Below are positions 15,093 to 35,304 of a stretch of DNA of 64,000 bases, piece by piece; within the stretch, counting starts at the first letter, position 1; each line of letters opens with the position of its first letter. The notes below the pieces were generated by a model, which saw only the letters and a program-made list of their open reading frames with translations, did not search any database and was not told the origin of the DNA. The position numbers and the translations under genes were made by a program. Origin of the DNA: Desulfobacteraceae bacterium (GTDB taxonomy: Bacteria > Desulfobacterota > Desulfobacteria > Desulfobacterales > Desulfosarcinaceae); NCBI GenBank assembly GCA_050288425.1, contig JBNKDU010000124.1:48711-112710 (forward strand). Reading direction: 5' to 3'.

Positions 15093-15156
15093 TGCTGACC
15101 CCCTATACGTGGATCCGGCGGCGGCTCGCCGCCGCCGGTGAACAGGAGGAAAATAA

Positions 15157-16340: not shown

Positions 16341-16380
16341 AAAAAGGAGCCGCTCCTCGATGGAAGCGGCTCCTTTTATT
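16341..16380. terminator. Bidirectional rho-independent terminator between convergent qmoC and the last cytochrome gene
   Basis: AAAAA-GGAGCCGCT-(loop)-AGCGGCTCC-TTTT. The A-run on one side and the T-run on the other let it serve both strands. Confidence 0.7.
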
Positions 16381-16474: not shown

Positions 16475-18175
16475 TTAGGGATATGTTTCGTTATTATGTC
16501 CCTCTCCGTGACAGAGCAGGGTGCAGTTGCCGGTGAAGCGGCCCTGGTCCACGAATGCGAGGGTGCCGCCGTTGGGCGCGACGATGGTGATGTCGAAATT
16601 GATCAGGTGGGTGTTGTTGACGGCGTTTCCCTGGGTGTTGCTGATGCCGTGGGGATCGTGGCAGGCCGAGCAGGGGGCGTTTTGTCCCACGATATGGAAG
16701 TTGTGCAGGCTGAAGCTGTCGTTGCCGAGAATGCTGGCGCGGCTGTGGCAGTTGTAGCACAGCGCATAGGCCGCCGCGCTTTCGGCCGTGTTATCGGCGG
16801 TCACGTAGTTGAGCTCCAGCAGGGGGGCGAAGTCGGATCCGTGGGGCCCCCGGGGACCGGCCGGATCGCTGTTGTTGTGGCAGTCTGTGCAGAAGATCAG
16901 GCTGGCGGTGGTCAAGGGAGGGATCAGGCTGGGCACGTCCGGGTTGACGCCCGGTGCGGCCACCGGATGGTAGGAAGGGTTGCCCGGATTGAATTCCAGA
17001 CGGGTGTTGAGCTGGAGGATCTGCCGGGTGATGTTCAGGACGGCGATGACATTGTTGTCCGCATGGCACTTGAAACAGATCTGGTAGAGGTCGGGCGCCG
17101 GGTCCACCTGGAGACCGGCCAGGTCGATGCCGGTCACCCCGGTGTTGCGCCCCGACACCAGGGGCGCGCCCGGCGACGGAACACCGTTGGCCTGGTGGGG
17201 GTTGTGGCAGTCGACGCACTCCACATGGTTGGAAATGGTGCCGACGGCGAAATTTTCGGCGGCATCGTGCACATCCACGGTGGCCTGAACCGGATGGCGG
17301 GAGGGGCGTGTCAGCAAGACCTCGATGTTGGTCTGGGCCACGTTTCCGTTGTGGCAGGCCAGGCAGGTATCCTCTTCGAAGCGCTGGTTGAGGATGCGCT
17401 GGGGTCTGGGCGCCGTATGGGGACGGTGGCAGGAGATACAGGCGTTCTCCGCCACGGTGGCCAGTTCGGAATTGGGCCATGGATCGACGCCCTGACCGTT
17501 CCACTGGGCGTCGGAGACGGCATGGGAGGCGGCGTTCCAGCCGATCAACTGATGGCAGGTGTTGCACAACCGGCCGAAGGTGTTGGTCATCACCAGGAAC
17601 TTGCCCAGGTCGTTGTTGTGCGGATTGTGGCAGGCGGTGCATTGCAATTGGCTGGTGTCGTCCACCTTGACCTGGGGGGGCAGCAGGGCCGGATCCACGA
17701 GTTCCCCTCGGGTTTGGGCCAATTGACTGTCGTAAATCAGGGAGATCGGGTGGTCGTCGGACAGATCGGTCCCCATCAAGGCCGGGCTGGTGCCGGGCAG
17801 CAGCCGTACACCGCCGGCGAAGGCGATCTCCTGTTCGCGGTCGAGTACGGCGCCCAGGGCGATGGTCCCGTCATGACAGCCGAGGCAAAGACGCGACGCT
17901 CCCGTGGGTTGGCCTACGGCCGCAACCAGGGTGGTGCTCTGGTAAGGGATGTAGTTGGTGGTCTGGTCTTCGCGGTTCCACAGGAAAGGTACATCGTCGC
18001 GGGCGTTGTGGGGGGTGTGGCAGAAGATGCAGATGCGCGATTCGTCCACCGCCCGAAAGGCTCCGGTGCCGCTGGTGGAAAGGTTGTGCGGGGTGGAGGC
18101 GATGTCGGCACCGGCCGTACCGGCGGTCAGCAGCGTGACCAGCATGATGATCCATGGGTTGCCGAGTTTCTTCAT
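16475..18175 (-). CDS. Secreted multiheme c-type cytochrome (11 CxxCH plus 1 Cx3CH)
   Basis: 566 aa with Sec signal MKKLGNPWIIMLVTLLTAGTAGA. Motifs: CIFCH, CLGCH, CTACH, CNTCH, CISCH, CLACH, CVDCH, CFKCH, CTDCH, CYNCH, CSACH, plus C-terminal CTLLCH. Many are CxxCHxPH pairs. The ATG overlaps the upstream NHL gene's stop (ATGA). Confidence 0.9.
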   Translation of the reverse strand: MKKLGNPWIIMLVTLLTAGTAGADIASTPHNLSTSGTGAFRAVDESRICIFCHTPHNARDDVPFLWNREDQTTNYIPYQSTTLVAAVGQPTGASRLCLGCHDGTIALGAVLDREQEIAFAGGVRLLPGTSPALMGTDLSDDHPISLIYDSQLAQTRGELVDPALLPPQVKVDDTSQLQCTACHNPHNNDLGKFLVMTNTFGRLCNTCHQLIGWNAASHAVSDAQWNGQGVDPWPNSELATVAENACISCHRPHTAPRPQRILNQRFEEDTCLACHNGNVAQTNIEVLLTRPSRHPVQATVDVHDAAENFAVGTISNHVECVDCHNPHQANGVPSPGAPLVSGRNTGVTGIDLAGLQVDPAPDLYQICFKCHADNNVIAVLNITRQILQLNTRLEFNPGNPSYHPVAAPGVNPDVPSLIPPLTTASLIFCTDCHNNSDPAGPRGPHGSDFAPLLELNYVTADNTAESAAAYALCYNCHSRASILGNDSFSLHNFHIVGQNAPCSACHDPHGISNTQGNAVNNTHLINFDITIVAPNGGTLAFVDQGRFTGNCTLLCHGEGHNNETYP

Positions 18176-19248
18176 GGCTGTAGATCCTGTGGGTTGAGCA
18201 GTTCAAATATTTGAATGCGTTTGTTGTAGGTATCCGCAACGAAGATGCGGTCATGGTCGTCGATGTGCAGTCCGGCCGGCAGCCAGAATTCGCCCGGCGC
18301 CTGGCCCGATCGTCCCAGGGCCATGAGCAGCCGGAAGCGTGCATCGAAAATCTGTATATTGTCGAAGTTGGCGTCGGCCACGTAAATACGGCCGGCGCTG
18401 TCGGCGGCCACCCCCCGGGGGCGTGAGAACCTGCCGCGGCCGTCCCCGATGCTCCCGAACCCGCCCAGCGGCCGGCCTTCCGCGGTAAAGGTCTGGACTC
18501 GGAAATTCATGGCGTCGGTGACATAAACAGTACCGTCGGCGCCGGCATACAGATGGGTGGGGAAATGCAGTTCTCCCCGTCCCGTTCCGGATCGGCCAAA
18601 GGTGCCGCGCAGCTTTCCGTCTTTCAGTCCGAAGCGCAGGATCTCGTTGCGGCGCGTGTCCACCACCAGCAGTTCCCCGCTGACGGGATTGACGGCCAGG
18701 CCCGTGGGCCGGGTCAATTGCGTCTTTCCCAGCTCGCCCACGGCGCGCCGGCCTGCCAGGTCATAGATCTTCACCACGGCTTGCTGGGAATCGGACACGT
18801 AGATCTTGCCGGTATGCGGCTCCACGGCCACGGCCACCGGCGAAAGCAATGGTTCTTCTTCCGTGGGAATCAGGCGATAGCGGCCGGCCGGCATGTCGAA
18901 CAGATGGATCTTGCGAAGATAACTGTCCACCACATAGATTCTGCCGTCCGGATCGGTGGTGACATCGTAGGGGGACACCAGCACGTCCTGCTGGCGGCCG
19001 GCCATATAGCGAAGGAAGCGGTGCATGAAGGAAGCTTGAATGCCAAGGTCTCCGGGACCGGTGATGCTCGCCAGGTAGCGGATGCGCGCCGGTGCCGACG
19101 GCGGCGGCCAGACTCGCTGCGGCTCCGGAGCCGGCGGCAGCATGCCGGGGTGCTGACAGGCGGTCACCAGTACGAGGATCGAGAGCGCCGTCGCCAGGCG
19201 CACCTGTGGGCCAATGGCTGATGATAGGCGTGTCCGCGAAATTGGCAT
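18172..19248 (-). CDS. NHL-repeat six-bladed beta-propeller lipoprotein
   Basis: 358 aa with a lipobox-like LVLVTAC. Six repeats of the type (R/K)IYV(A/V/S)D...N.RIQ.F, e.g. RIYVVDSYLRKIHLFD, TVYVTDAMNFRVQTFT, RIYVADANFDNIQIFD, RIFVADTYNKRIQIFE. Confidence 0.85.
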   Translation of the reverse strand: MPISRTRLSSAIGPQVRLATALSILVLVTACQHPGMLPPAPEPQRVWPPPSAPARIRYLASITGPGDLGIQASFMHRFLRYMAGRQQDVLVSPYDVTTDPDGRIYVVDSYLRKIHLFDMPAGRYRLIPTEEEPLLSPVAVAVEPHTGKIYVSDSQQAVVKIYDLAGRRAVGELGKTQLTRPTGLAVNPVSGELLVVDTRRNEILRFGLKDGKLRGTFGRSGTGRGELHFPTHLYAGADGTVYVTDAMNFRVQTFTAEGRPLGGFGSIGDGRGRFSRPRGVAADSAGRIYVADANFDNIQIFDARFRLLMALGRSGQAPGEFWLPAGLHIDDHDRIFVADTYNKRIQIFELLNPQDLQP

Positions 19249-19270
19249 GATAATAAGGGTCGATCTCCTT

Positions 19271-21325
19271 TTAAAACGGGATGCGGATCAATTCGACTTG
19301 CACGGTCTGGCGTGTCCGCCGGTCATCATTGGCCTCGTCATGCTCGTCAAGGTAGCTGTAGGTGATGCCGCCGGTCCAGATGCGGTACTTGAATTCGAGC
19401 TTGGCAAGGATGCCGGTATCCACCACTTCGCGTAAATCACCGCTGACGCTTTCCCAGAAACCTTCCAGGCTGAATTTGCTCCATGAGCGCAGCAGGTACT
19501 CGCCCCGCACCCGCAGACTGATCACCTGTTCGGACTGGTCCAGCTCCTTGAAATAGATGTCGGTGTAGCCGCCGGTGATGGAACCGAAGAGACGTCCGCC
19601 GGTATGTTGGCGCAAGGTCTGTTCGGCGCTCCATTGGGTAGTGGAAATCCCGCTGTCGCGCTCGCTGTCCTCCAGGGTCAGCCGGGTCTCGTACATCGGT
19701 TTGGTATAGCGCACCAGGGCCGTGTGGACCTGTTCGCCCGCCGGGCTGCTTGGATCGGGTCCGCTGGTGATGGATTGATCGGCGCGACGGTAGCGGTAGG
19801 AGAGGGTCAGGGCATCCCAGAGGAAAAACTCGAATCCGTAGCGTTGGCGTAGAATGGCATCGTCGAAGCTGGCGTCGGAGGTGAACTGATAGTCCACCAG
19901 TACGGTTTGCCCTTCGGCGATATTCCCCAGCACGGTACGGCTGATCCGGGTCTGATTGCCGATCTGCTCCAGGATGTAATCCGCGCCATTGACATAGACG
20001 ATGGTGGCGTTGCCGTTCGTAACCCGCACCGTGGCAGGATCCACATTGGGATTGTTCAGGAAGGTGACCGCGGATGTGCTCAGGGTCTGGGGTTCTGCGA
20101 TTACCTGGATCTGCAGTGCGTCCAGATTGCGGGTGGTGACGTCGTAGTTGGCGCCTGCGAACAGGTTCATGCGTCCCCACTCGATGGGTTGCCGAAAGGT
20201 GAAATCGAGCCGGCCGCGATAGATTTGCTCGTCGCCTCCGGTGAATTCATTGCCGGTGTAGCCGGCGCCGCCGGCGGTGGTCAGCCTGTCATTATACAAA
20301 TGAGTGACGCGGGCTTCCGCGTCCTGGGATTGAAATTCGGAAACGCCGGTTTCCGCGCGGCTGAAGCCCAGGTTGTAGTCGCTGCGCAGGTTGGTGCGGT
20401 GCTGCCAGTGCAGGTTTTCACGCAGCCGCAGGCTGTTGGTCTCCAAGGTTCCGAAATCGGAGCTCCGGTAATTCCAGAAGGAGTTGAGTTTCACCCGCTG
20501 GTCACGGGCCAGCATCCATTCGTTGTGCAGGTCGGAATTCAAGGTGTCGACGGTATTGGTAAATCCCTGGAGGGTGCGTTCGTTTTCGCTGTAGGTGGCG
20601 CTCAGGCGGGTCTTGCTGCGGATGGCGTTGTGGTGCGTCACCAGGTTGTATTGGTCCTGGGTCTCCTGGGAGTCGAAAAATCCGGATTGGTCCACGTCCC
20701 GGTGAACGTAACCCAGGGTGGTGGGCAGCAGGCGGTTCTTGAGGTAGATGTCGGCGCCGTATGTGTCGATCTCGGATTCGGCGCTCTGGGCAAAGGCGCT
20801 GCGAAGGGTGGTCTCCCGGCGCTGGCCGAAGAGGCGCAGGGAAACCGGTTTGGGGTCCAACAGGCGCGCCTCGGCAAAATAGGACGCCAGGGTATCGCTG
20901 GAATCGTCATTTTCTCCGGAGTCGCGGTCCTGGGTGGATTGCCGGAGCTCCGGCTCCACCCGCAATTTCAATTTCATCAGGGCCGGATGGTAGATCCATC
21001 CGTTGGTTTCCAGGACGAGCCGTTCGCGCCACTCCTGGGTGGTGTCCCGGCTGTCGCCCCGGCCTCCGCGACGTTCCTCCTCTTCGAAATGATAGGCGAG
21101 ACCCAGTCCCACCTTGGGACGTTGGAAGTAGATCCGGCCGGTTTCGCCGTCACTCTCCTTGGCCGCGGGCACGGCCCGCAGGGAAAGGGTCGCTGGAACT
21201 TCCAGCGGAATGACGGTATTTCCATCCGATTCTGGTTGCTCGGCGGCCATCGTCCGATCGTGAACGGCGAGGCTGAGGAGTAACGCGGCTGCGGCGATCC
21301 ATGTACGATATTGGCAAGCTTTCAT
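19271..21325 (-). CDS. Putative outer-membrane beta-barrel (porin-like) protein
   Basis: 684 aa. Signal peptide MKACQYRTWIAAAALLLSLAVHDRTMAAEQ. No haem or Cys motifs. Composition is rich in Y/R/T/N/D/G with alternating hydrophobic residues. The C-terminal ...VQVELIRIPF ends in Phe, like a BAM beta-signal. Size is comparable to MtrB-type barrels. No family recognised by eye. Confidence 0.6.
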   Translation of the reverse strand: MKACQYRTWIAAAALLLSLAVHDRTMAAEQPESDGNTVIPLEVPATLSLRAVPAAKESDGETGRIYFQRPKVGLGLAYHFEEEERRGGRGDSRDTTQEWRERLVLETNGWIYHPALMKLKLRVEPELRQSTQDRDSGENDDSSDTLASYFAEARLLDPKPVSLRLFGQRRETTLRSAFAQSAESEIDTYGADIYLKNRLLPTTLGYVHRDVDQSGFFDSQETQDQYNLVTHHNAIRSKTRLSATYSENERTLQGFTNTVDTLNSDLHNEWMLARDQRVKLNSFWNYRSSDFGTLETNSLRLRENLHWQHRTNLRSDYNLGFSRAETGVSEFQSQDAEARVTHLYNDRLTTAGGAGYTGNEFTGGDEQIYRGRLDFTFRQPIEWGRMNLFAGANYDVTTRNLDALQIQVIAEPQTLSTSAVTFLNNPNVDPATVRVTNGNATIVYVNGADYILEQIGNQTRISRTVLGNIAEGQTVLVDYQFTSDASFDDAILRQRYGFEFFLWDALTLSYRYRRADQSITSGPDPSSPAGEQVHTALVRYTKPMYETRLTLEDSERDSGISTTQWSAEQTLRQHTGGRLFGSITGGYTDIYFKELDQSEQVISLRVRGEYLLRSWSKFSLEGFWESVSGDLREVVDTGILAKLEFKYRIWTGGITYSYLDEHDEANDDRRTRQTVQVELIRIPF

Positions 21326-21388
21326 GCGGAACCCGATTCTTCCGTTTTTGAGGGCAAATGGCTGTAGTCGCTATCCCGATTCATGAGG

Positions 21389-22495
21389 TTACGGCCGGTT
21401 TTCCGGTGAACCGACATATTCGCCAAACCCGTATACATTGATGCGATTGGGGCCGAAGCCGGAGGCCACGTAGACCACATATTCCAGCCGAAATCCCGGA
21501 TCGACGAAGTTGGCGAAATATTGGGCGTTGGCATAATCGATATGTACGCCTGCAGGCAGGTAGAGATTGCCCGCCCCGGTGCCGCCGCCGCCGAAATAGA
21601 GCAGCATGCCGCCGGAGTCGGCATCGAAGATCTGAACATTTTCAAATGCTGCGTCGGCCACGTACAAATGGCCGCTGTGGTCCACGGCCAATCCTTTGGG
21701 ACGGGCGAACGCGCCCAGGTTGTCCCCCGGAAAACCATAGGCCTTGACAAACCGGCCTTCCCCATCGAATTGCTGCACACGGAAATTGAAGGAGTCGGTG
21801 ACGAAGAGATGGCCACGGGGATCGACGGTTAGATGGGACGGCATGCGAAAGGCCCCCGGATCGGCACCGGTGCGGCCGATGCGCTGGAGCACCCTGCCGC
21901 TTGCGCGATCGAGCACCACCACCTGGTTGCGTTTGAGATCGCAGACATAGACGCGGTTTTCATATACCGCCACGTCCACCGGCCTTTCGAAGACCTCTGC
22001 ATTGCCGTATGTCCGCAAATAGCGGTTACGGTCATCGAAGACCACCACCTGTTTGCGCCCCATGTCGGCGATGTACTTGATGTCTTCGGGCGTGACCCAG
22101 ATACCCGACGGGTTCTGAAGGGCGCCCATGCCGGAGTCGGCCAGGGAGTCGATGCGTCGTTTGGCCAGATCGATGATGCGCAGCTTCCGGGGGTTGCGGT
22201 CCAACACGTAGATCTTGCCCGGAACCGAGGCCACATCATAGGGGCGCCCGATGAGTTCGCCGGTCGGCGCCTCTCCCAGCAGAAACCGGTCCCATTTGCT
22301 GCGGCGGCGACCCAAGTCCGCTTCCGCGCTGATGGTGTGCAGGTATTGCAGCCGTGGCCGTTCCGGCGGGGGTGGGTAGAAAACGATGGGTCGCTCCGCC
22401 TGGCGGGACGGGACCGATGCGCAGCCCCCGAGAATGAGCAGGGCCAGTGCGGACGCGGCCCATGCCCGCCACGCAAGCCGGGTGCGAATTTCCAT
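21389..22495 (-). CDS. NHL-repeat six-bladed beta-propeller lipoprotein
   Basis: I prefer the ATG at 22495 (MEIRTRLAWRAWAASALALLILGGCAS, lipobox LGGC), preceded by AGGAGA. The track ORF starts at 22540. NHL blades include KIYVLDRNPRKLRIID, RVYVCDLKRNQVVVLD, HLFVTDSFNFRVQQFD, HLYVADAAFENVQIFD. Confidence 0.85.
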   Translation of the reverse strand: MEIRTRLAWRAWAASALALLILGGCASVPSRQAERPIVFYPPPPERPRLQYLHTISAEADLGRRRSKWDRFLLGEAPTGELIGRPYDVASVPGKIYVLDRNPRKLRIIDLAKRRIDSLADSGMGALQNPSGIWVTPEDIKYIADMGRKQVVVFDDRNRYLRTYGNAEVFERPVDVAVYENRVYVCDLKRNQVVVLDRASGRVLQRIGRTGADPGAFRMPSHLTVDPRGHLFVTDSFNFRVQQFDGEGRFVKAYGFPGDNLGAFARPKGLAVDHSGHLYVADAAFENVQIFDADSGGMLLYFGGGGTGAGNLYLPAGVHIDYANAQYFANFVDPGFRLEYVVYVASGFGPNRINVYGFGEYVGSPENRP

Positions 22496-22553
22496 CTTCT
22501 CCTGATGAGATCGTAGGAATGTGCTTTGCGCCATGACCATCCTGTTCTGTCGT

Positions 22554-23189
22554 CTATAGATTGTGGCAGGTCAAACAAAGGGACGAAGCCGTATTGCTCT
22601 TGCGCAAGAGAGAGACCTGACCGAACTTGTTGTGCACATCGTGACACGACGCACACTCCATGCGACTTCCGAAAAGCATGTCGCTGAGAATGGTTCCCGA
22701 GCTGCCGTCCAGACCCGAAAGCGTGGTGGCCGGATCGCGCAGGCTGCCGTCGGCCAGGGCCAGGTCGGTATTGTAGACGAAAGAGATGGGGTGATCGTTG
22801 CTCAGGTCGGTGCCTAGATTGTTGCGTCCGCTGATCAACTGGCTGCCCGGATTGCCGCCGAATGCATCGATGGCGATGGTGCCGTCATGACACGACAGGC
22901 ACAGTTTGGATGGTCCGATGGGCTGATTCAGCGACCCGGCGGTGGTGCCCGCATCGAGAGTGTCGCTTCCGTAAAGGTTATAGACGGCCGTGGAAACCGC
23001 ATGGTTCCACATGGGGACGTTTTGGACGTCCGTGGATGTGTTGTGGGGCGCATGGCACGGCAGGCAAATTTCTCCCTGGGAGAATCCCAGCCCGCTGAAA
23101 TCGTGGGCGCTGCCCGCGATTTCGGCCATGGCAGTTGCGTAAAGGGCCAATACCAGCATGGTCGTGAAGATGAATAGATTCTTTAACAT
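22554..23189 (-). CDS. Secreted tetrahaem c-type cytochrome
   Basis: ATG at 23189 (MLKNLFIFTTMLVLALYATAMA signal). Motifs CLPCH, CLSCH, CASCH, CLTCH. The sequence is colinear with the N-terminal third of the 566-aa cytochrome (SAHDF..CLPCHAPHN..CLSCHDGTIAID..GTDLSNDHPISFVYN). Confidence 0.85.
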   Translation of the reverse strand: MLKNLFIFTTMLVLALYATAMAEIAGSAHDFSGLGFSQGEICLPCHAPHNTSTDVQNVPMWNHAVSTAVYNLYGSDTLDAGTTAGSLNQPIGPSKLCLSCHDGTIAIDAFGGNPGSQLISGRNNLGTDLSNDHPISFVYNTDLALADGSLRDPATTLSGLDGSSGTILSDMLFGSRMECASCHDVHNKFGQVSLLRKSNTASSLCLTCHNL

Positions 23190-23312
23190 GGGAACACCTA
23201 TCCTAGCTGATGGGCAGCAATTGCTGCATGAAATATGGAATTCGGCTTTCGGCCATTTTCGTGACGGCGTCACGTGTTTTGTGAAGCAAGTTTGCATGGG
23301 CATGGGTTCTCC

Positions 23313-26057: not shown

Positions 26058-26067
26058 CGGAATTCCA

Positions 26068-27018
26068 TCAATGCCGCAATTGGATACGGCGAATGCGGTT
26101 GGCCCGCATCTCCACTACGTGAATGTCCGTTCCGTTTCCGGCGGCGATCAGACCCACCGGCGTTTTCAACCGATAAACACTGCCGCTGTCGCATACAACG
26201 CCCAGCAAGCGGCCCATATCGGAGAATACCTGGATCACCCCCATATAGCTGTCGCTGATATAAACGCGGTCCTGGTTATCCACCGACACGCCTTTGGGCC
26301 GGACCAGTCTTCCCGGCGTGACCCCCCAGCCGCCGATGGTGTTCAGAAAATTGCCGAAGGGATCGAATTTCTGGATCCGGGTATTGAGCACATCCACCAC
26401 CAACAGCTCGTTGAGGCTGTTCTTCGCCAGCATGGCTGGATAGCGGAATTGGCCGTTGGCCTCGCCATATCCCCCCCAGGCAGTCTGAAATCGGCCCTGC
26501 TGATCGAAGACCTTTATTTTATGGTTGTCGTTGTCCACCACATAAATCCGATTCTTCAGCCCCGAAGCCAGCACATCCACCGGGTCGGCCGGTTTTTCAC
26601 CGGCCGCAGTGGGCACATCGAATTGGGATCGATATTTCCCATTCAAATCAAATACTTGAATGCGCCGATTGCCGCTGTCGGCAATGTAAACGCGTCCCTG
26701 GGCGATATCGATGCCCAGGGGCAGTTGAAATTCTCCCGGCCCCTGGCCGGGGGAACCGAAAGCGGACACCATGTTGCCTTCGGCGTCGATCACCGCCACC
26801 CGGTGGTTGACCCCGTCCACGAGATAGTAGTTGCCGTTGGGTGCCACGGCCACATCGCTGGGTTGATCCACATCCAAATTCCACGACGTTTGCGCACTGA
26901 TTTCGATGCACTCCATGGCCGCGGCCGGCCGGTCCGTGGATAGTGCGGCGAGCAGAATCCATCCTGCGATCAACCCCCCGCGAGTCCACAGCCGTAGGAT
27001 TTGCCGCAGGGTCATCAT
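26068..27018 (-). CDS. NHL-repeat six-bladed beta-propeller protein (secreted)
   Basis: The ATG at 27018 overlaps the upstream gene's stop (ATGA). The track ORF start at 27201 is an extension. Signal MMTLRQILRLWTRGGLIAGWILLAALS. Blades include NYYLVDGVNHRVAVID, RVYIADSGNRRIQVFD, RIYVVDNDNHKIKVFD, ELLVVDVLNTRIQKFD, RVYISDSYMGVIQVF. Confidence 0.85.
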   Translation of the reverse strand: MMTLRQILRLWTRGGLIAGWILLAALSTDRPAAAMECIEISAQTSWNLDVDQPSDVAVAPNGNYYLVDGVNHRVAVIDAEGNMVSAFGSPGQGPGEFQLPLGIDIAQGRVYIADSGNRRIQVFDLNGKYRSQFDVPTAAGEKPADPVDVLASGLKNRIYVVDNDNHKIKVFDQQGRFQTAWGGYGEANGQFRYPAMLAKNSLNELLVVDVLNTRIQKFDPFGNFLNTIGGWGVTPGRLVRPKGVSVDNQDRVYISDSYMGVIQVFSDMGRLLGVVCDSGSVYRLKTPVGLIAAGNGTDIHVVEMRANRIRRIQLRH

Positions 27019-27890
27019 TTGGGCGAATCCTTTCCATCCGCAGGTTTTCCACCGGCCCGGGTATCGGATAATAGATCCGGCAGGTACCAGCTTTCGTATT
27101 TGGCCAACATACCGGTGATATTCAAATGGACCAGATCGGCGATGCGTTTTTCGCTGAAATCGAGGGTGCGGTAGTCGAGGATTCCGTTCTCGGCATGGCA
27201 AGCTTGGCAGTCGGGCCCCTTCGCCTGCGTGTCGGTGTGGAATTGTGCCGCCGCTGCCTTGCGTTCATCGTCGCCCAACTGCCCGCGGGCACGCAAAAAA
27301 TCCCGCGCCGATTGGCGCCGGGCATCTGCCGTCGCCGATGGGGGCCCGTCCGGCAAGGCAGGATCGACGGGCGTAATTTTGGAGAAGGCATCGTCAACCA
27401 TGGCCAGATACCCGGTTTTGTCATCGTAACGCGTACCGGCAAATGGGCCTTCGGGGGCCGGATCGATGGGGCTGGCCCAGCGGAAGACGACGCGATGATG
27501 ATCCTCCGTCTTTATATGACAGCTTTGGCAGGCCAAGTATTGGGTGTGCATATTCAGCAGGGCCCGAATCCGCTTGCTCTTGTTGTGGGGCATTTCCGAA
27601 TGGCAGATCAGGCACAGGGGTTGCTGCGACTCAGACAGCCCGGGGTAGCGGACCAGGTTGTGGAAATGACGGTGGCGGTCCAGTTTGGCCTGGCGCTGTT
27701 CAGCGGTCAAGACCGGCGCACCGGGAGCCGCATGCCGTCCGATCAGCGGTCGCAACAGCCCCGGGCCGTGATGCGAGAGGGTCAGATGATAAATAACGCC
27801 GGCACCCACGCACAGGGACATGGCCAGAAAAATCAGCCCGAGGATATAGGCCAGCAGGGGATGGTTTTTGGGGTGCTGCTCGTTTGTCAA
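27015..27890 (-). CDS. Membrane-anchored trihaem c-type cytochrome
   Basis: 291 aa. TTG start at 27890 with GGGAG 9 nt upstream; there is no ATG before the TM helix. N-terminal TM helix LLAYILGLIFLAMSLCVGAGVIY. Motifs CLICH, CQSCH, CQACH. Confidence 0.75.
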   Translation of the reverse strand: MTNEQHPKNHPLLAYILGLIFLAMSLCVGAGVIYHLTLSHHGPGLLRPLIGRHAAPGAPVLTAEQRQAKLDRHRHFHNLVRYPGLSESQQPLCLICHSEMPHNKSKRIRALLNMHTQYLACQSCHIKTEDHHRVVFRWASPIDPAPEGPFAGTRYDDKTGYLAMVDDAFSKITPVDPALPDGPPSATADARRQSARDFLRARGQLGDDERKAAAAQFHTDTQAKGPDCQACHAENGILDYRTLDFSEKRIADLVHLNITGMLAKYESWYLPDLLSDTRAGGKPADGKDSPK

Positions 27891-27896
27891 TCTAGA

Positions 27897-28907
27897 TTAC
27901 TCCCTATGGCCGCCCGGAATTCCGGCATCTTCCGCTGCAGCTTCTTCCCTGTCCTTTTCGGCGTCTTTCCTATTGGCGGCTACATCCCGTTGCCGATCTT
28001 CGAGTCCGACCAGCAAGCGCCTCATGTAAGCCCGCTCTTCCGGCATCTCTTCCAGATTGCGGATATATTCCAGGAAATGTTCCTCGATCTGGTGTTCCCG
28101 GGTAATCTTGCCGGTGAGAAACGTCCATTGCACGGGAAAGCGGCCCGGAACGAAGTGGACGTTGCCCCAGTGCCAGAAGGCAAGAACAATCAGAGCCATG
28201 ACAGCCTCGTCGGCGTGCATCAACCTGGCCAGGTCCTGAATCAGACCTGGGGCCGTGCGGCTGACTTCAGGATCTCCCAAAAGCACATCCGCGATGCTTC
28301 TGGGGATCACGCCGGACAATTGGTCCGGCAGCAGCAATGCCAATCCGGCAATGGTAAGGACCGCCGTACCCCAGATAATGGCCAGGTAGTGAATCTTCTG
28401 CTTGTACATGAATTTTTCCATCATGGGCCGCTGGGGCGTCCTTCCCAAGAAATATTGGATGTCCTGGAAAATATCTTTGAGATCTTGCAGCCGGGGCAAT
28501 TGCGTGCGCCGGTAGTCGAAACGACCCTGGATCAGTTGCAGGCCGGTTCCGCCGAGAATGGTGAGAATATGGTAGGCCGAGGCGAACATCATGACATAGG
28601 CGCCGATTCTGTGGATGGCCATGGCGTTGTCGATGCCGCCGTACAGGGCGATCACATAGGGGGACCAGAACTCGTCGCTGAAGTAAAGCGGCACCCCCGT
28701 GGATGCCAGCACGAGGAAGCTGACGAATACCAGAAGATGCTGAATGACGATATGAGGAGAATAACGGGGCAGGTCCCCATAGGGATTGGAGGCGACATGT
28801 TTATAGATATCCCTGGGAACGAAACCGACCCCCTCGACGAAAAATCCGCCCTGCGGCCGCGTTGTGCCTTCCCCGGTGCCATCGGTGGTGAGGATTGTTT
28901 CCGTCAT
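27897..28907 (-). CDS. Integral-membrane dihaem cytochrome b (FdnI/PhsC/CbcB-like)
   Basis: The ATG at 28907 overlaps the upstream cytochrome c gene's stop (ATGA). About four TM helices carry conserved His: HIVIQHLLVF, AIHRIGAYVMMFASAYHIL, and MHADEAVMALIVLAFWHW. Ends in a charged C-terminal tail. Confidence 0.75.
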   Translation of the reverse strand: MTETILTTDGTGEGTTRPQGGFFVEGVGFVPRDIYKHVASNPYGDLPRYSPHIVIQHLLVFVSFLVLASTGVPLYFSDEFWSPYVIALYGGIDNAMAIHRIGAYVMMFASAYHILTILGGTGLQLIQGRFDYRRTQLPRLQDLKDIFQDIQYFLGRTPQRPMMEKFMYKQKIHYLAIIWGTAVLTIAGLALLLPDQLSGVIPRSIADVLLGDPEVSRTAPGLIQDLARLMHADEAVMALIVLAFWHWGNVHFVPGRFPVQWTFLTGKITREHQIEEHFLEYIRNLEEMPEERAYMRRLLVGLEDRQRDVAANRKDAEKDREEAAAEDAGIPGGHRE

Positions 28908-29986
28908 GATGGATTGTCTCCCGCGGAGGATGGGTGCCCTCGCCATGAGGACCCCTGATACAGCACGAATCGGATGCCGTTTCGCTTGCGGCCAAAGGTT
29001 TCCAACAACAGCAGGCCCATCAGGCCTCCCATGGTCCCGTACAATACCAGACGCAACATCAGGTTGATGATGTAGATAACCGGATTTTCATCTTTGCCGG
29101 TTTCCGGGTGCACCGCCACGTTGACGAACCAGTCGTTGGTCCGCTGGTGGCACTGCCGGCAGGTGGTCCGCAGATTGTTGGCGTTGATGGAGGCCCGGGG
29201 ATCTTCCTTGGCAAAGATATCGTGCAAGGCATTGCTGGCATGGCAACTGAGGCAATCGGCGGTCCTCTCCGATCCCAGCATGATGGCCTGGCCGTGTATG
29301 CTGCGGGAATAGGTGGCCACTGCTTTCATCGATCTTGGACTCAGCTGGAAAGGCGCCAACAGCCGCTGGTCGGCATGGCAGTCGGCACACAGGCGATCGA
29401 TTTCCACCGGCAAACGCGTGGTTTTTTTGCGCAGGCGGTGGGTGACATGCATGTACGCGCGGGTTACTCCCTCCTGCTGGTGGCAATTGAGGCAGCGTTT
29501 CAACGTCCGTTCGTAAGAGATCCGTTCTTCCAGGGGTCTGGCCAGCAGGGGGTTGAGATGGCAGTATTTGCAGTCCGGTCGGGCCTGGCGCATTTCCGGC
29601 GTATCCTCCGGTTTGGGGGCATGCACGCTGCTGTTGAACAGGTCCGCGATTTTGCGGTGGGAGAAGACATCGTCGGCAAAGGGGGGTCTGACATGGCAGG
29701 CCGTGGCGCAATCGACGTTTTGGCTGATCGGATCGTGGGGTATCTTGCGGATCGAGGTGTGGCACTCGCGGCAACCGACGCTGCGGTGGACGCTATGGGC
29801 GTACATGGTAGGGTCGACATGATAGGTGATCCGCCGGCCCGTTTCATCCATTCTTCCCAGGTACGGGTATTTGTGGCACATCAGGCAGTTCTCCTTGTCC
29901 GCACCGACTGCCCAAACCGGCGAGAAGTTGGATAACAGGCCCCATAGGATTGCCGCAGCGATCGATATTTTGAGACGCGAATCCAT
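28904..29986 (-). CDS. Multiheme c-type cytochrome with C-terminal membrane anchor (7 CxxCH plus 1 Cx3CH; CbcA-like)
   Basis: 360 aa. Signal MDSRLKISIAAAILWGLLSNFSPVWA. Motifs CLMCH, CRECH, CATACH, CKYCH, CLNCH, CADCH, CLSCH, CRQCH. C-terminal TM helix VIYIINLMLRLVLYGTMGGLMGLLLL. Confidence 0.85.
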   Translation of the reverse strand: MDSRLKISIAAAILWGLLSNFSPVWAVGADKENCLMCHKYPYLGRMDETGRRITYHVDPTMYAHSVHRSVGCRECHTSIRKIPHDPISQNVDCATACHVRPPFADDVFSHRKIADLFNSSVHAPKPEDTPEMRQARPDCKYCHLNPLLARPLEERISYERTLKRCLNCHQQEGVTRAYMHVTHRLRKKTTRLPVEIDRLCADCHADQRLLAPFQLSPRSMKAVATYSRSIHGQAIMLGSERTADCLSCHASNALHDIFAKEDPRASINANNLRTTCRQCHQRTNDWFVNVAVHPETGKDENPVIYIINLMLRLVLYGTMGGLMGLLLLETFGRKRNGIRFVLYQGSSWRGHPSSAGDNPS

Positions 29987-30030
29987 GAATTTCGTTCACC
30001 TATCGGTTAATTCATAACCGGTCCGCCCAC

Positions 30031-30954
30031 CTATAAGCGATGGCATTCGATGCACAACCGGCCGGGCAGGCGGTGCCGGTATTTGGAACCGGCACCTTTT
30101 GCGCTGGGCCGTGACGCAGGGATAATGCCTTGGTCGTGGGGGTTGTGGCAGGTGATGCAAGTCAATTTGCCTTCGGCGTCCAACGGCAGAATGATGTCGA
30201 ACTTGGCTTCCATCTTTTTCATGACCCCCAGCATCTTTTCCGAAGGCTTAACCAGGTGGTTGAAATTGCCGGAATGTCTGCCTTCGATTCGATGACACCG
30301 TTGGCAGATCATTTCCAGATCGCCGACATATTCCAGCGAGGCGTACGTGTCGGTTTCGGTGTTCGGCACGGAGGCATGGCAGTAGAGGCAGGTTTGCTCC
30401 TTAATTTCACCGGATTCTAATTTCTGCAGGTGAGGATTAAAGGCCTGGTAAATATCGGGGTTGTGGCAACGAAAGCAAATTCCCGTGCGGTTGGCATAGG
30501 GTGCCCCGCGCACCGAGTTTTTCTCAAAATCCCGCCGCGAGCATTGGTAGTGGATATCGTGGCAGGTCAGGCAGGTGATTTTCCCTTTTTCCAACGGAAA
30601 CTCCCGGGGAATTCTCGCTGCCAGGGCATTGGACGGCACAATCCCCACCGGGTGTACATAACGTTGGGGGTCATGACATTTGCACAGCAGATTGTAGTCC
30701 CCCTTGTATTTGAGCTGGCTATCGCTTTTTCCTGCGGGAACGCGGACGTGACAGGCCTTGCAGTACTGTCCGGTATAATGAAAGGGGCCCTGGGTCCAAC
30801 CGTCCCAGTCTTCTTGCGATGCGGCGTGACAGACTGTCTTGGCGATAAGGATTACCAGGACCAGAGCAACGAGACTCAGCACCCTTCCCATGGTTTGGGG
30901 GATGCTCTTCTCGACTCCGGTGGACCGGTGGAGTATGAGGCGAGAAGGAACCAT
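30031..30954 (-). CDS. Secreted heptahaem c-type cytochrome
   Basis: Motifs CKACH, CLTCH, CFRCH, CLYCH, CQRCH, CITCH, CIECH. Hydrophobic signal GRVLSLVALVLVILIAKTVCHA. The start is uncertain: ATG at 30954 or 30891. The track start at 31083 is TTG and adds an implausible 64-aa extension. Confidence 0.8.
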   Translation of the reverse strand: MVPSRLILHRSTGVEKSIPQTMGRVLSLVALVLVILIAKTVCHAASQEDWDGWTQGPFHYTGQYCKACHVRVPAGKSDSQLKYKGDYNLLCKCHDPQRYVHPVGIVPSNALAARIPREFPLEKGKITCLTCHDIHYQCSRRDFEKNSVRGAPYANRTGICFRCHNPDIYQAFNPHLQKLESGEIKEQTCLYCHASVPNTETDTYASLEYVGDLEMICQRCHRIEGRHSGNFNHLVKPSEKMLGVMKKMEAKFDIILPLDAEGKLTCITCHNPHDQGIIPASRPSAKGAGSKYRHRLPGRLCIECHRL

Positions 30955-31079
30955 CGTCTTTTCAACCCTTCCATCAATCATGGGGTTTGGCAATAGCTTT
31001 CTCCTGATCCTCCTCTCATCGGGAGGCAATTCCTGCAATTGCGCAAAATGCGATAACGCGCATCGTGAAGACGGACAAA

Positions 31080-33362
31080 TCAATTCACCTTATGTTGTCC
31101 AGGGGGCCCTGGACGGCGCCACAGTTCGCGTTTTTCAGTGTCGTGAAAATAGAGATACCGAAACAGACTATCGATACCATGGCAATCCATACAGAGGATT
31201 TCACTGCTCGAGTTGCGCAGGAAACGAAATCGCACTTGCACCGGGTAAGGATCGGCGGGGTGCGGCGCGGCAGCGGGCAAATGTCCGTTGTGGCATGTTG
31301 GACAACCGATATCGCCAACCCGCGTGCGATGTCCGAGATCGTCGAAAACGGGCGTGGACTTTTCCCTGCCCCGGGTGGGGTCTGCATGGCCGGCGACCAA
31401 TTTGCCGGCTGGGTGGCTGGCGATGGCCGGAATTCTTTTCTCGGCTGGTTTGCCCCTGGCGTGGCAGCTGGTGCACAATCCGCCGATGGGATTTACGTTT
31501 TCGGATAGCGGTCCATACTCGCGGGCCCACAGCCGCATGGAGTTGGGGCTGTTGTGGGGCAGATGGCAGGCGCCGCAAAGACCGGAGGATTGAACGGTCT
31601 GGCCCGCCAGGTTAGTCGCTTCCGGCGCTGTGTTTCTCAGGTCGTGGGAGGATCCCGCCATGTTGGCCTGGGCCATGTGGCAACTTTTGCACAGATCCGG
31701 TTCCGGCGCGTTGGCGATGCGCAGAAAGCTGTCGGCGGCCGTGCCCTCGACATTTGCGGAGTATGAATCGGCGTCGGGAGAGGACCGCCGGCTCCAGATA
31801 TGTGGTTCGTGACAGGTCAGGCAGACCATATTCCGGTCGGGATTCCGGTTCCCCTTGTCATCGTACCGCGGCAGGGTCGGGGCGATGTCCCCGCCACCCG
31901 GCCGCAGGGCGGCCAGGGAAACATGGATCGGGTGGTCGTTGCCGCCCACCAGTTTGTTTTTGGCGGATCCCCGGGCGTTATGGCATGAGGTACAAACCTG
32001 GGAGGCCCAATCCTCATCGGCTGTCAGCGGTCTGGCCCACAGGCGTCTCTGCGCGGCGTGATGCGGCACGTGGCAGGTGCTGCAGGGGCCTGCATTCTCC
32101 GGGGTCATCGATAGCGCGTTCTTCTCCAGGGGGGCCGTGATCCCAAGATTGTGGTCGGAGGTGAGCAGAGGTCGTTTGTCCGAGTGGCAGGTGACGCAGA
32201 GCGCGGAAGTGCCGTCGTTGGCTATTCTGAGAAAACTGTTGCCTGCGTCCCCATCCACCTTTACGTCGCCTCCATTGGCGGTGGCGTTCGGGTCCCAGCG
32301 ATGCACGTTATGGCAGGAGAAGCATTGCACGCTTCCGGTGGGTGTTTTGACGCCATTGGCGGAAAACAACGGCAGGTGGACGCCGCCGGCATATCGATCC
32401 TTCGGTCTTACGTTCACCGGATGGTTGTATTGTCCGAGACGTTTGGCTTGCAGTTCGCCATTCTCGCCATGACAGGTGAGGCACATCTGCTTGGCCGGCG
32501 GGTCGCCCGTCAAGGGACGGGCCCAGATTTTATTGCCGGCGGCATGATGGGGTACATGGCAGACGCCGCAGGGGCCTGATTTCACCGGCGTCTGGTGGCG
32601 GATGTTTTTGAGGTTGGGGAACTGCGCGCGCATGTCGTGTCTGGAATTCAGGAGACCGGCCTGCTCCTGGTGGCAGGTCAGACACAACGCGGATTTGGCT
32701 GTGGACGCTGTCAGAGCGCGCTTTCCGTGTGCCTGGTGGCAGGATTGACAGATCATCTCTCCTGCCGGACTGAATTTCGCACCCAGCTCGGCCGCTTTAA
32801 TTCTCGATTGCGCCTTGACGACTCTCAGCACCGGATGGCTGGCGCCCTCCTTTCGGCCGGTCCGGTTTCCGTGACAGGCGACGCACAGCTGGGATTTATC
32901 GTTGTCCATGCGCATGAACGCCGTACTGCCCACCTGGGCACTGTCTTTGAAATCGTGCAGCGTGTGGCAAGTGCCGCAGTAGATCTCGTTGTCGCTGTCC
33001 AGCCGCAGGATATCCGGGAGCTTCAGATTTTCCGGCACCTTCTTGAGCAGATGATGGGGATTGTCGGCCTCCACGGTGAGCCGGCTGTCGACCACATAGC
33101 CGTCATGACAGGTGATGCACATGGATTCGGTGGAGACCAGGCCGGTGGAACCGGCCACCACGATGGGCGATGCGGTTTCGGGCACCAGGGTCGCCTGGTG
33201 GGTCTGAACGGCGTCGAACCACGACACATGGCATAGCAGGCACTCTTTGTCGGCACGTCGGGTCAGGGCCTGGGCCGGCGCCGCCGTGAGCAGCCAGCCG
33301 CAGAGCAGCAAAAGGGACCATGCCCATGAAAGCGTTTTTTTATGGACGTGAATGGGGATCAT
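31080..33362 (-). CDS. Giant modular multiheme c-type cytochrome (18 CxxCH), paralogue of 23313-26057
   Basis: 760 aa; signal LSWAWSLLLLCGWLLTAAPAQA; GAAGGAAG SD. 18 CxxCH: the same 6-haem N-terminal region plus three 4-haem modules. C-terminus CMDCHGIDSLFRYLYFHD matches the paralogue. Confidence 0.9.
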   Translation of the reverse strand: MIPIHVHKKTLSWAWSLLLLCGWLLTAAPAQALTRRADKECLLCHVSWFDAVQTHQATLVPETASPIVVAGSTGLVSTESMCITCHDGYVVDSRLTVEADNPHHLLKKVPENLKLPDILRLDSDNEIYCGTCHTLHDFKDSAQVGSTAFMRMDNDKSQLCVACHGNRTGRKEGASHPVLRVVKAQSRIKAAELGAKFSPAGEMICQSCHQAHGKRALTASTAKSALCLTCHQEQAGLLNSRHDMRAQFPNLKNIRHQTPVKSGPCGVCHVPHHAAGNKIWARPLTGDPPAKQMCLTCHGENGELQAKRLGQYNHPVNVRPKDRYAGGVHLPLFSANGVKTPTGSVQCFSCHNVHRWDPNATANGGDVKVDGDAGNSFLRIANDGTSALCVTCHSDKRPLLTSDHNLGITAPLEKNALSMTPENAGPCSTCHVPHHAAQRRLWARPLTADEDWASQVCTSCHNARGSAKNKLVGGNDHPIHVSLAALRPGGGDIAPTLPRYDDKGNRNPDRNMVCLTCHEPHIWSRRSSPDADSYSANVEGTAADSFLRIANAPEPDLCKSCHMAQANMAGSSHDLRNTAPEATNLAGQTVQSSGLCGACHLPHNSPNSMRLWAREYGPLSENVNPIGGLCTSCHARGKPAEKRIPAIASHPAGKLVAGHADPTRGREKSTPVFDDLGHRTRVGDIGCPTCHNGHLPAAAPHPADPYPVQVRFRFLRNSSSEILCMDCHGIDSLFRYLYFHDTEKRELWRRPGPPGQHKVN

Positions 33363-33368
33363 CTTCCT

Positions 33369-34316
33369 TCACTGCAACGCATACACACTGACCATGTTCA
33401 GCGTCGATTGGACGACATAGAGCCGCTTATCCGAGTCGATGGCAATTCCCAGCGGTGTGACCAGCCGCAGGTGGCCGGGGCCGTCCGGCGAAGCCAATAT
33501 GCCACGGAACCGTCCCGTGGGTTCGAACACCTGAATCACTCCGGTGTAGCTGTCGGATATGTAGACGCCGCCGTCGCCGTCCAGGGCGATCCCTTTGGGG
33601 CGATAGAGCTGGCCGGGCAGCACGCCCAGTTGCGAGATTTGCCGCGGGTTCCCGCCGCCGGCATCGAACACCTGGACACGTCCGTTCAAAATATCGACGA
33701 CATAGAGATCGTCGCCGTCACGGGCGGCCATCATGCCGGGGAACCGCAGTTGTCCTTTCTGGTTTCCCATGCGGCCCCATCGGGCCGTCAGACTGCCGTC
33801 GGCCGCAAATACCATCACCTGGTGGTTGCGGGCGTCGCTGACGTAGATCCGCTTACCGCCCTGCCGGGCTTCCACCTCCACCGGCCGCGATTGCCAGGGT
33901 TTCAGGTCGATCTGGCGCTGGAACTTGCCGGTGCGGCCGAAAATCTGGATGCGCTGGTTCCCGGTATCCGCCACGTAGATCCGGCCCGCTTCGTCGATAT
34001 CGATGCCCACGGGGCTGTGGAATTGGCCCGCCTCCCGGCCCTGGCGGCCGATGGCGCCGATGTAGCGCCATTTGGCGTCGAACATTTTGACCTGGTGGTT
34101 GGCGCCGTCCAGCACATAGAGCCGGCTGTCCGGACCCACGGCGACTTCCGTGGGTTGATTGAAATCCTGTCGGATATCGGCGAGATGTTTCACCTGGATG
34201 GGTCGAACGGTTTCGCCGACGGCCGGCTGGGCAGTGGCGATGCCCGCACCGCCGATGGTCAGGCAAAGCCAGACCCACAAACCCGAGGTGATCTTGGCAA
34301 GACGGTTTTCGATCAT
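33369..34316 (-). CDS. NHL-repeat six-bladed beta-propeller protein (secreted)
   Basis: 315 aa. The ATG overlaps the upstream gene's stop (ATGA). Signal SGLWVWLCLTIGGAGIATA. Blades include RLYVLDGANHQVKMFD, RIYVADTGNQRIQIFG, RIYVSDARNHQVMVFA, DLYVVDILNGRVQVFD, GVYISDSYTGVIQVFE, RLYVVQSTLNMVSVY. Confidence 0.85.
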   Translation of the reverse strand: MIENRLAKITSGLWVWLCLTIGGAGIATAQPAVGETVRPIQVKHLADIRQDFNQPTEVAVGPDSRLYVLDGANHQVKMFDAKWRYIGAIGRQGREAGQFHSPVGIDIDEAGRIYVADTGNQRIQIFGRTGKFQRQIDLKPWQSRPVEVEARQGGKRIYVSDARNHQVMVFAADGSLTARWGRMGNQKGQLRFPGMMAARDGDDLYVVDILNGRVQVFDAGGGNPRQISQLGVLPGQLYRPKGIALDGDGGVYISDSYTGVIQVFEPTGRFRGILASPDGPGHLRLVTPLGIAIDSDKRLYVVQSTLNMVSVYALQ

Positions 34317-35284: not shown

Positions 35285-35304
35285 GGTTTCCCTCGTATCG
35301 GAAT

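Follow-up and report, generated by a model that had tools for sequence, protein, structure and literature searches.

Four haem-free propellers and their cytochrome neighbours

We analyzed a stretch of 64,000 nucleotides from a Desulfobacteraceae bacterium (GenBank assembly GCA_050288425.1, contig JBNKDU010000124.1, positions 48,711 to 112,710; hereafter the window), which carries four genes encoding haem-free NHL-repeat beta-propellers (NHL1 to NHL4) within a cluster of multihaem cytochrome genes, and which is identical to one contig of the NCBI metagenome-assembled genome (MAG) GCA_050287185.1. All genes of this cluster are located on the minus strand and form a single co-directional chain, running from the ATP sulfurylase gene sat (~41405) to position 16475. 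A previous sequence-only reading of this DNA had proposed that three of the four propellers are paired with large cytochromes, and every number it gave was reproduced by our translation of open reading frames (ORFs) and counting of haem motifs. For example, we confirmed that NHL1 is followed after 6 nt by an 18-haem gene (c18), that NHL2 is followed after 10 nt by a 22-haem gene (c22), that NHL3 overlaps a 12-haem gene (c12) at an ATGA, and that NHL4 lies between a tetrahaem gene (c4) and a gene encoding a beta-barrel (Table 1). The pairing of propellers with cytochromes is real, conserved, and biologically meaningful.

All four proteins are assigned to the Pfam families PF01436 (NHL) and PF17170 (six-bladed propeller), scoring 69-105 bits against a cut-off of 20, and none contains a CxxCH motif, in agreement with the earlier description. 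NHL3 was the sole propeller modelled, with NHL1, NHL2, and NHL4 aligning to it; the AlphaFold2 model (36 sequences; pLDDT 91, pTM 0.87) contains 24 strands arranged in six four-stranded blades, and an N-terminal strand (residues 56-62) completes blade 6. Among solved structures, this model is closest in fold to NHL domains, those of TRIM2/3/71, Thin, Brat, and PknD (target-normalised TM-score 0.80-0.86). No propeller-cytochrome complex was present among the PDB matches of our sequence and fold searches, which instead comprised eukaryotic NHL domains, the designed Pizza proteins, and the PknD sensor domain.

Comparison of the four propellers demonstrated that they belong to two families, with NHL1 and NHL2 (type A) sharing 40% identity and NHL3 and NHL4 (type B) sharing 35%. 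The type-B proteins are predicted from their sequences to be outer-membrane lipoproteins: the lipid Cys is present in 98% of 122 aligned members of the family, W47-P48 is invariant, and a motif V-W-P-x-P-P-E-x-P-R-I-R-F is shared. In NHL3, this conserved motif corresponds to strand 56-62, and is preceded by a Pro-rich tether that runs ~25 residues from the lipid Cys. NHL1 and NHL2 have ordinary signal peptides without a lipobox, and type A has no conserved Cys at the alignment column of the lipid Cys; these proteins are most simply read as soluble and periplasmic. As for the cytochromes, the signal regions of c4, c12, and c22 do not contain a Cys, and c18 contains only a non-canonical LLLC located inside the hydrophobic core.

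Family alignments, including the 122 type-B members, identified no conserved Cys or His in either family that would be fit for haem binding or for a catalytic site, bearing out the earlier statement that obvious catalytic residues are lacking. The donation of a propeller His to an unsatisfied haem was considered and rejected, as the two His residues common to NHL3 and NHL4 (FPTH, GLHID) lack conservation across the 122 members. Alignment of the propellers, which the sequence-only reading had proposed as a route to conserved surface patches, did reveal conserved positions, but these belong largely to the structural NHL motif, with family-specific residues in addition, and no distinctive binding patch was found. 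It is very improbable that the propellers have an enzymatic role of the NHL, SGL, arylesterase, or peptidylglycine alpha-amidating lyase (PAL) type, with a small molecule or the cytochromes as substrate. There is weak similarity to SGL, Arylesterase, Vgb_lyase, and ScyF (Pfam, NCBIfam), and a match to the PAL structure 3FVZ, but the Pfam and NCBIfam similarities are below curated cut-offs and extend over generic blade repeats, the best matches are non-enzymatic NHL domains, and neither family has a conserved His triad, Cys, or any other active-site or metal-site set. We therefore rejected PAL-, SGL-, and arylesterase-like enzymes as candidates.

Two of the cytochromes are relatives of OmcE. 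Residues 8-209 of c12 match the PDB chains 7TFS_A (E = 4e-28) and 9YUQ_N, and c4, when read from 23189, aligns end to end with 9YUQ_N (E = 3e-24) and 7TFS_A (E = 7e-23); the motifs HD(F/L)S, PLWN, and SNDHPI, like all four CxxCH motifs, are in register. We take 7TFS_A to be the OmcE filament of Geobacter sulfurreducens, and 9YUQ, a 16-chain entry, to be a bundled OmcE filament. The longest ORF for c4 adds 38 residues before a canonical signal peptide; based on the alignment to the OmcE chains, the real start of c4 is probably the ATG at 23189, which leaves a gap of 123 nt after c22. A sequence search with c22 found no meaningful PDB relative, NCBIfam assigns only generic doubled-CXXCH domains to the large cytochromes, and looking up exact sequences yielded no names for them. 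The 684-aa protein encoded between NHL4 and NHL3 has no family match (Pfam, NCBIfam) and ends in ...IRIPF. Its model (pLDDT 74.5) is all-beta, with ~30 long antiparallel strands, and resembles the outer-membrane barrels Cir, LptD, FimD, and MtrB, with MtrB having the top query-normalised TM-score (0.41) among the matches listed. Residues 415-470 of this barrel form a small beta domain inserted between strands, which is conserved in 10 homologues and might be a plug or an extracellular cap. By gene content, the region 23189-16475 is an OmcE nanowire-type gene cluster.

The two type-A propellers are each preceded by an inner-membrane quinone module. NHL1 is located directly downstream of a module made up of tetrahaem, iron-sulfur (FeS), DsrP-like, octahaem, and unk331 genes, and the module of NHL2 is made up of a 7/8-haem cytochrome (c7b), a membrane cytochrome b, and a trihaem cytochrome (c3).

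Pairing within the window and across genomes

Cytochromes of the c type account for 9 of the 14 non-NHL genes in the chain, and all four NHL genes adjoin one. When gene order was shuffled, at least three NHL genes were followed by some cytochrome c in 29% of shuffles (P = 0.29), but adjacency of the NHL genes to the three cytochromes with at least 12 haems gave a permutation P of 0.005. The three pairs described in the sequence-only reading are adjacent as stated, but their independence was overstated. The 18- and 22-haem proteins share 35% identity over their full length, and c4 shares 38% identity with the first 210 aa of c12; since the propellers are paralogous, and their partner cytochromes are likewise paralogous, the sequences define only two module types and not three independent pairs. 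In the same way, the overlaps and short gaps that had been taken as tight translational coupling are present, but occur equally at the genes upstream of the propellers, with ATGA overlaps also found at unk331-to-NHL1 and c3-to-NHL2. Tight spacing is thus general in this operon, and the type-A spacing varies between genomes, from -4 to ~250 nt.

We therefore looked to other genomes, in which the two module types can be counted separately (loci are labelled L with a number where one has to be named). Our type-A scan, which used an alignment of NHL1, NHL2, and their relatives as query and one genome per species, identified 80 loci, and these split cleanly into 23 short orthologues (~310-350 aa) and 57 generic NHL proteins. 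The 23 short-orthologue loci are from Nitrospirota, Desulfobacterota, Thiobacillus, Sulfurimicrobium, Acidiferrobacteraceae, Sedimenticola, Deferribacteres, and Phycisphaerae. A gene encoding a cytochrome with 13-28 haems is present directly downstream, on the same strand, in 19 of the 21 type-A loci with enough downstream DNA (ORF scan and inspection). In contrast, none of the 57 generic loci, which mostly encode long multidomain proteins and come from archaea, Chloroflexota, Nitrospira, and others, contains an ORF with at least three haem motifs in the 10 kb flanking each side of the gene.

Conservation extends to the genes that precede the type-A propeller. An ORF scan located a 3-haem ORF directly upstream of the propeller gene in 16 of 21 core loci, with a c3-like ORF upstream in most of the labelled type-A loci, and with genes for a cytochrome b and a 7-8-haem cytochrome upstream of the 3-haem ORF. 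This order is that of the window at 29986-23313, and the five-gene module it defines (c7b, cytochrome b, c3, NHL, large cytochrome) is found in most of the 25 labelled loci. The order seen around NHL1, i.e., tetrahaem, FeS, NrfD/DsrP-like, octahaem, unk331, NHL, and a ~775-aa cytochrome, recurs in a Deltaproteobacteria MAG (L003). Orthologues of unk331 are ~300-350 aa in length with a single N-terminal hydrophobic segment (9112-9999 in L003; from 8827 in L006), and in the window, L003, and L006 this family is located directly upstream of an NHL1-type propeller, the slot that c3 occupies before NHL2. Where modules are duplicated (L003, L012, L019, L022, and the window), each large cytochrome retains its own propeller. 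For example, L012, L019, and L022 each contain two diverged tandem copies of the five-gene module (7/8-haem, cytochrome b, trihaem, NHL, and 18-20-haem genes), and because one copy shows greater divergence than the other at all five genes, whole modules appear to duplicate and evolve together.

The type-B unit is conserved as well. The order cytochrome, NHL, small cytochrome, barrel, NHL, and 509-591-aa cytochrome is present in Desulfosediminicola flagellatus (CP050698, 802956-820014), Desulfurivibrio sp. C05AmB, a Nitrospiraceae MAG, and a Desulfuromonadaceae MAG. A metagenome scan seeded on the NHL3 family identified 80 further loci, most of which have the order OmcE-like, NHL4-type, barrel, NHL3-type, and 12-haem gene. 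Among the 73 loci whose sequence continues for at least 400 nt past the NHL3-type gene, 70 have a cytochrome gene next, the other three being ORF-calling artefacts, and in 52 of these 70 the start-stop overlap between the two genes is 4 nt. Where the downstream sequence is complete (54 loci), this cytochrome carries 12 haems in 47 cases, and the barrel gene is directly upstream of the NHL3-type gene in 54 of 67; loci seeded on the barrel share the gene order, with an NHL gene on either side of the barrel. In L154, L161, L162, L164, and L166, the slot of c12 is taken by a pair of genes, the first OmcE-like with 4 haems and the second with 8 haems, and this suggests that c12 is a fusion (or that it has been split elsewhere), and may be a base or adaptor subunit of a filament. 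The window is not alone in placing types A and B next to each other: the same is seen in L014, L016, L017, L086, L126, and L135, and L126 and L135 match the whole window layout (NHL2-type, 18-20-haem, OmcE-like, NHL4-type, barrel, NHL3-type, 12-haem).

That adjacency is merely a by-product of an operon dense in cytochromes would account for the 29% of shuffles and for the tight spacing found throughout the operon, but this explanation has next to no likelihood, as it is already contradicted by the cross-genome data, where specific orthologous pairs are kept across phyla and generic NHL genes have no cytochrome neighbours (0/57), and by the P of 0.005 obtained in the window for partners with at least 12 haems. 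A partnership had been argued from repeated pairing within the window; the any-cytochrome count does not carry that argument, but the conserved, family-specific pairing (19/21 and 70/73, against 0/57) makes a functional partnership very likely.

Sulfur-locus setting and published systems

Examination of the flanking genes demonstrated that the whole electron-transfer supercluster is wedged between sat and aprA-qmoABC, a core dissimilatory sulfur locus (aprA, 956 bits against TIGR02061; qmoC, 486 bits against NF038018). Since sat and aprA-qmoABC are located at the cluster, together with a DsrP-like subunit, the host is a sulfate reducer or a sulfur oxidiser. This DsrP-like NrfD subunit is accompanied by a twin-arginine translocation (Tat) FeS subunit, a tetrahaem cytochrome, and an HAO-like octahaem cytochrome (36804-40038), without DsrM or DsrK, and the same NrfD/FeS/tetrahaem/octahaem set precedes an NHL-cytochrome pair in L003. 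Across the 22 genes from 16475 to 44133, our family searches found no rotamase or peptidyl-prolyl isomerase (PPIase) family, and they found no cupredoxin domain in the cluster. Upstream of sat are two tRNA-Ser genes (anticodons GCT and TGA) at 42393-42689 (-), and the listed ORFs at 41564-42442 and 42800-43363, which overlap or flank them, look spurious. A gene encoding a thioredoxin/TlpA-like protein is located nearby (43402-44133, -), and thioredoxin-TPR (CcmH-like) genes, possibly for cytochrome maturation, are present near related OmcE-type clusters (12982-14109 in L086; from 14067 in L170).

Table 1. Genes and features of the propeller-cytochrome cluster and its flanks, in order along the minus strand.
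Feature	Position	Strand	Remarks
sat (ATP sulfurylase)	40134..41405	-	Context; co-directional, directly upstream of cluster
Tetrahaem cytochrome of quinone module	39103..40038	-	True start probably inside ORF
Tat-exported 4Fe-4S ferredoxin subunit (DsrO/NrfC-like)	38140..39090	-	
NrfD-family membrane subunit	36804..38123	-	402 bits against DsrP equivalog cut-off of 350
c8, octahaem cytochrome, Multi-haem_cyto / HAO-like type	35305..36768	-	
unk331, conserved, no family match	34313..35308	-	Stop overlaps NHL1 start
NHL1, type-A propeller, 315 aa	33369..34316	-	Sec signal, no lipobox; 0 CxxCH
c18, 18-haem cytochrome c, 760 aa	31080..33362	-	18 CxxCH; paralogue of c22
c7a, heptahaem cytochrome	30031..31083	-	ORF start over-extended; public gene call begins ~86 nt past c18 stop
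c7b, 7-8-haem cytochrome	28904..29986	-	C-terminal transmembrane helix
Membrane cytochrome b	27897..28946	-	PF01292 Ni_hydr_CYTB
c3, trihaem cytochrome	27015..27890	-	N-terminal transmembrane helix; stop overlaps NHL2 start
NHL2, type-A propeller, 316 aa	26068..27018	-	Sec signal, no lipobox; 0 haem motifs
c22, 22-haem cytochrome c, 914 aa	23313..26057	-	22 CxxCH
c4, OmcE-family tetrahaem cytochrome, putative nanowire subunit	22554..23189	-	Signal peptide, no lipobox; longest ORF to 23303 (249 aa)
NHL4, predicted type-B propeller lipoprotein, 368 aa	21389..22495	-	Lipobox LGGC, conserved N-terminal motif; 0 haem motifs
Predicted outer-membrane beta-barrel, ~30 strands, 684 aa	19271..21325	-	C-terminal Phe; 0 haem motifs
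NHL3, predicted type-B propeller lipoprotein, 358 aa	18172..19248	-	Lipobox VTAC, lipid Cys31; 0 haem motifs
c12, 12-haem cytochrome, 566 aa	16475..18175	-	11 CxxCH + 1 CxxxCH; OmcE-like N-terminal tetrahaem domain + octahaem extension
Intrinsic-terminator-like hairpin, 15-bp stem + T run	16342..16377	-	Closes operon 3' of c12
aprA-qmoABC	9177..16305	+	Context; convergent with cluster end

The sequence-only reading did not recognize that NHL3 and NHL4 are lipoproteins, that the neighbouring cytochromes belong to the OmcE family, or that an association of propellers with cytochromes is already published (PMC5539420, PMC5815863, 10.1101/2022.05.06.490989, 10.1101/2025.10.22.684050). The window is therefore a further example of a published association, and the scaffold, docking, or attachment subunit proposed in the sequence-only reading is the standing, unproven hypothesis in the field.

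The closest published counterpart of the type-B unit is the OmcE cluster of Desulfuromonadia, which contains an OmcE tetrahaem gene, two beta-propeller lipoproteins, a large beta-barrel, and further multihaem cytochromes, and in which the barrel is called ‘a secretion or anchor’ and no tip- or base-like candidate was found (10.1101/2025.10.22.684050). The window likewise contains an OmcE-family tetrahaem gene, two propeller lipoproteins, a large barrel, and a further multihaem cytochrome (c12). It differs in that its OmcE-like gene precedes NHL4, in that the unit is fused downstream of a type-A propeller and 22-haem module, and in its host, which has sat, aprA, and qmoABC and whose closest relatives are Desulfobacterota and not Geobacter or Desulfuromonas. 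Related OmcE-type loci usually contain a small 5-haem gene between the first propeller and the barrel, and/or a 5-13-haem gene upstream of the first propeller; both are absent from the window, where c22 occupies the latter position. In Geoalkalibacter, an OmcE homologue also occurs with two NHL proteins (PMC12016550).

Other published loci share parts of this layout. Skennerton et al. (2017) described an operon core of a six-bladed propeller, a 16-haem and a 26-haem cytochrome, and a peptidyl-prolyl isomerase, for which extracellular electron transfer was proposed, in syntrophic SEEP-SRB1, Ca. Desulfofervidus, Desulfuromonadales, Geobacter, and Anaeromyxobacter (PMC5539420). Compared by gene content, the window is similar in having a six-bladed propeller gene beside very large signal-peptide cytochromes in sulfate reducers, and differs in having no isomerase, and in having its 18- and 22-haem genes in separate modules, each with its own propeller and inner-membrane module. 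In Desulfovibrio ferrophilus IS5, Deng et al. (2018) proposed that two NHL propellers in cytochrome clusters stabilise an outer-membrane cytochrome complex (PMC5815863); the clusters are DFE_0448-0451 and DFE_0461-0465, and DFE_0463 is a lipoprotein propeller (PMC5815863; PMC8322314; PMC9769857). Here too, NHL six-bladed propellers, including a lipoprotein, are interleaved with multihaem cytochromes, although by their descriptions these clusters carry OmpA, a PPIase, and a seven-bladed propeller, and OmcE-type homology is unreported there.

In the Uet cluster of Ca. Tenderia electrophaga and Gallionella, the NHL genes uetH and uetI are directly upstream of that for the undecahaem UetJ (10.1101/2022.05.06.490989; PMC10734462). 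Like the window, this cluster includes tetrahaem and trihaem cytochromes and a beta-barrel porin; as described, however, Uet (UetA-J) also contains a cupredoxin, a PPIase, and one predicted seven-bladed propeller, is found in electron-uptake lithoautotrophs, and is not described as having a quinone module of the kind found in the window. The NHL gene Gmet_0556 of Geobacter metallireducens is located beside the 4-haem Gmet_0557 and the 27-haem Gmet_0558 (PMC10989804; 10.1101/2022.05.06.490989), an order and set of haem counts that differ, by description, from those of the window, and mutants lacking the cytochrome genes Gmet_0557/Gmet_0558 are impaired in Fe(III) oxide reduction and in electron transfer between species (PMC10989804).

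The barrel gene of the window is flanked by multihaem cytochrome genes, as are those of MtrCAB (6R2Q), OmaB-OmbB-OmcB, and ExtABCD. In these porin-cytochrome conduits, the outer cytochrome is a lipoprotein and there is no propeller, whereas the window has its lipoboxes in propellers (NHL3 and NHL4) rather than in cytochromes; the window barrel also has ~30 predicted strands, compared to 26 in classical conduits. The PCC3/PCC4 systems of iron oxidisers (PMC5566968) were considered as the same system and rejected, since their description includes no propeller and a different inner-membrane protein. We found no description of the five-gene type-A module in the literature searched, and the CbcBA paper does not mention a propeller.

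Role of the propellers

We consider it probable, with some reservation, that the four NHL proteins are non-redox, non-catalytic structural subunits, i.e., docking or assembly subunits, of an extracellular-electron-transfer supercluster. From the gene anatomy, folds, lipoboxes, OmcE homology, and conserved pairing, we infer that each propeller would make physical contact with its cytochrome in a fixed stoichiometry, and that it would serve in anchoring or in export. In the type-B unit, the two propellers and the barrel would form an outer-membrane platform that exports and/or holds the OmcE-family cytochromes. As the cytochromes have plain signal peptides and the propellers are lipidated, it would fall to the propellers to provide membrane attachment and a docking surface, which lipoprotein cytochromes of the MtrC/OmcB type carry themselves. 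The type-A propellers would be dedicated docking or assembly partners of the 18- and 22-haem cytochromes, and may position or stabilise a long haem wire running through the periplasm from the inner-membrane module to the outer-membrane platform.

The placement of the two families also bears on whether the propellers are instead surface adhesins, or modules binding minerals or partner cells that bring cytochromes to solid substrates. NHL proteins have been suggested to bind mineral nanocrystals (PMC12016550), and the type-B lipoproteins could be surface-exposed, but type A has no anchor, its modules have no porin gene of their own, and these propellers are most simply periplasmic. A general adhesin would also leave the strict gene-for-gene pairing with specific cytochrome families unexplained, and family conservation identified no distinctive binding patch, the family-specific residues being unplaced on the fold; we therefore regard this role as improbable.

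A closer competitor to structural subunits is that the propellers are transient assembly or export factors, such as chaperones or secretion helpers, for cytochromes that are very large or that polymerise. In PMC13194489, which cites Shen et al. 2025, OscE/F/G of the osc operon are proposed to act in OmcS secretion and OscH in folding; the reading of the barrel as ‘a secretion or anchor’ in the OmcE preprint (10.1101/2025.10.22.684050) and the frequent presence of a peptidyl-prolyl isomerase in related operons (PMC5539420, PMC8322314) are in keeping with this, and type-A propellers occur only with the largest cytochromes (13-28 haems). However, the propellers and cytochromes of D. ferrophilus were detected together in protein samples both of planktonic cells and of the extracellular fraction (PMC8322314, Table 2), in keeping with a lasting association, and one propeller per cytochrome paralogue, with frequent start-stop overlap, fits equimolar synthesis better than it fits a helper acting catalytically. 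We regard a transient role as possible but rather unlikely.

Several observations weigh against propellers being lasting structural subunits, or limit how far the pairing supports it. The present data do not separate such subunits from transient factors. Co-occurrence across genomes, which had been proposed as a check, holds in that propeller-seeded loci keep the cytochrome (19/21; 70/73), but L014 contains one c7b-cytochrome b-c3-cytochrome module without an NHL gene (15819-18047), and L024 contains a fragmented NHL gene (9899-10868) with no large cytochrome downstream; moreover, the loci behind these counts were seeded on NHL proteins or on close homologues of the barrel, so that cytochromes lacking a propeller are only weakly addressed. 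The polarity of propeller followed by cytochrome is not universal, as the OmcE-like gene is upstream of NHL4 in the window and in several other loci. Finally, the barrel model is of medium confidence (10 sequences, pTM 0.58).

Extending the structural-subunit reading, we tentatively propose two further points, which taken jointly we think doubtful although worth stating. The type-A unit, which consists of a quinone module, a trihaem cytochrome (or unk331), a soluble NHL protein, and a 13-28-haem cytochrome, and which is found in at least five phyla, may be an unnamed, self-contained periplasmic conduit with an obligatory 1:1 propeller; and c12 may be the base or adaptor of the OmcE filament. 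In this arrangement, the OmcE-like N-terminal domain of c12, including its N-terminal His motif, would join the end of the filament, the octahaem tail would pass through the barrel, and NHL3, translated from the overlapping reading frame, would clamp c12 to the outer membrane.

It is still an open question how cells export and anchor very large multihaem proteins and cytochrome wires that reach micrometres in length, and how these are connected to the inner membrane. Haem-free propellers are the most consistently co-inherited non-redox genes of the clusters concerned, and none has a demonstrated function. The window brings both propeller families together in one operon, leading from quinone modules to an OmcE-type outer-membrane unit, and the placement of this operon between sat and aprA-qmoABC supports the view that extracellular electron exchange and sulfur respiration are directly connected. 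Lipid anchors that are predicted on the propellers and not on the cytochromes point to a concrete, testable role for the propellers, while leaving the picture in the literature unchanged. Two leads emerge from this analysis: a widespread and apparently unnamed five-gene type-A module, and the OmcE-like head of c12, possibly the base of the filament.

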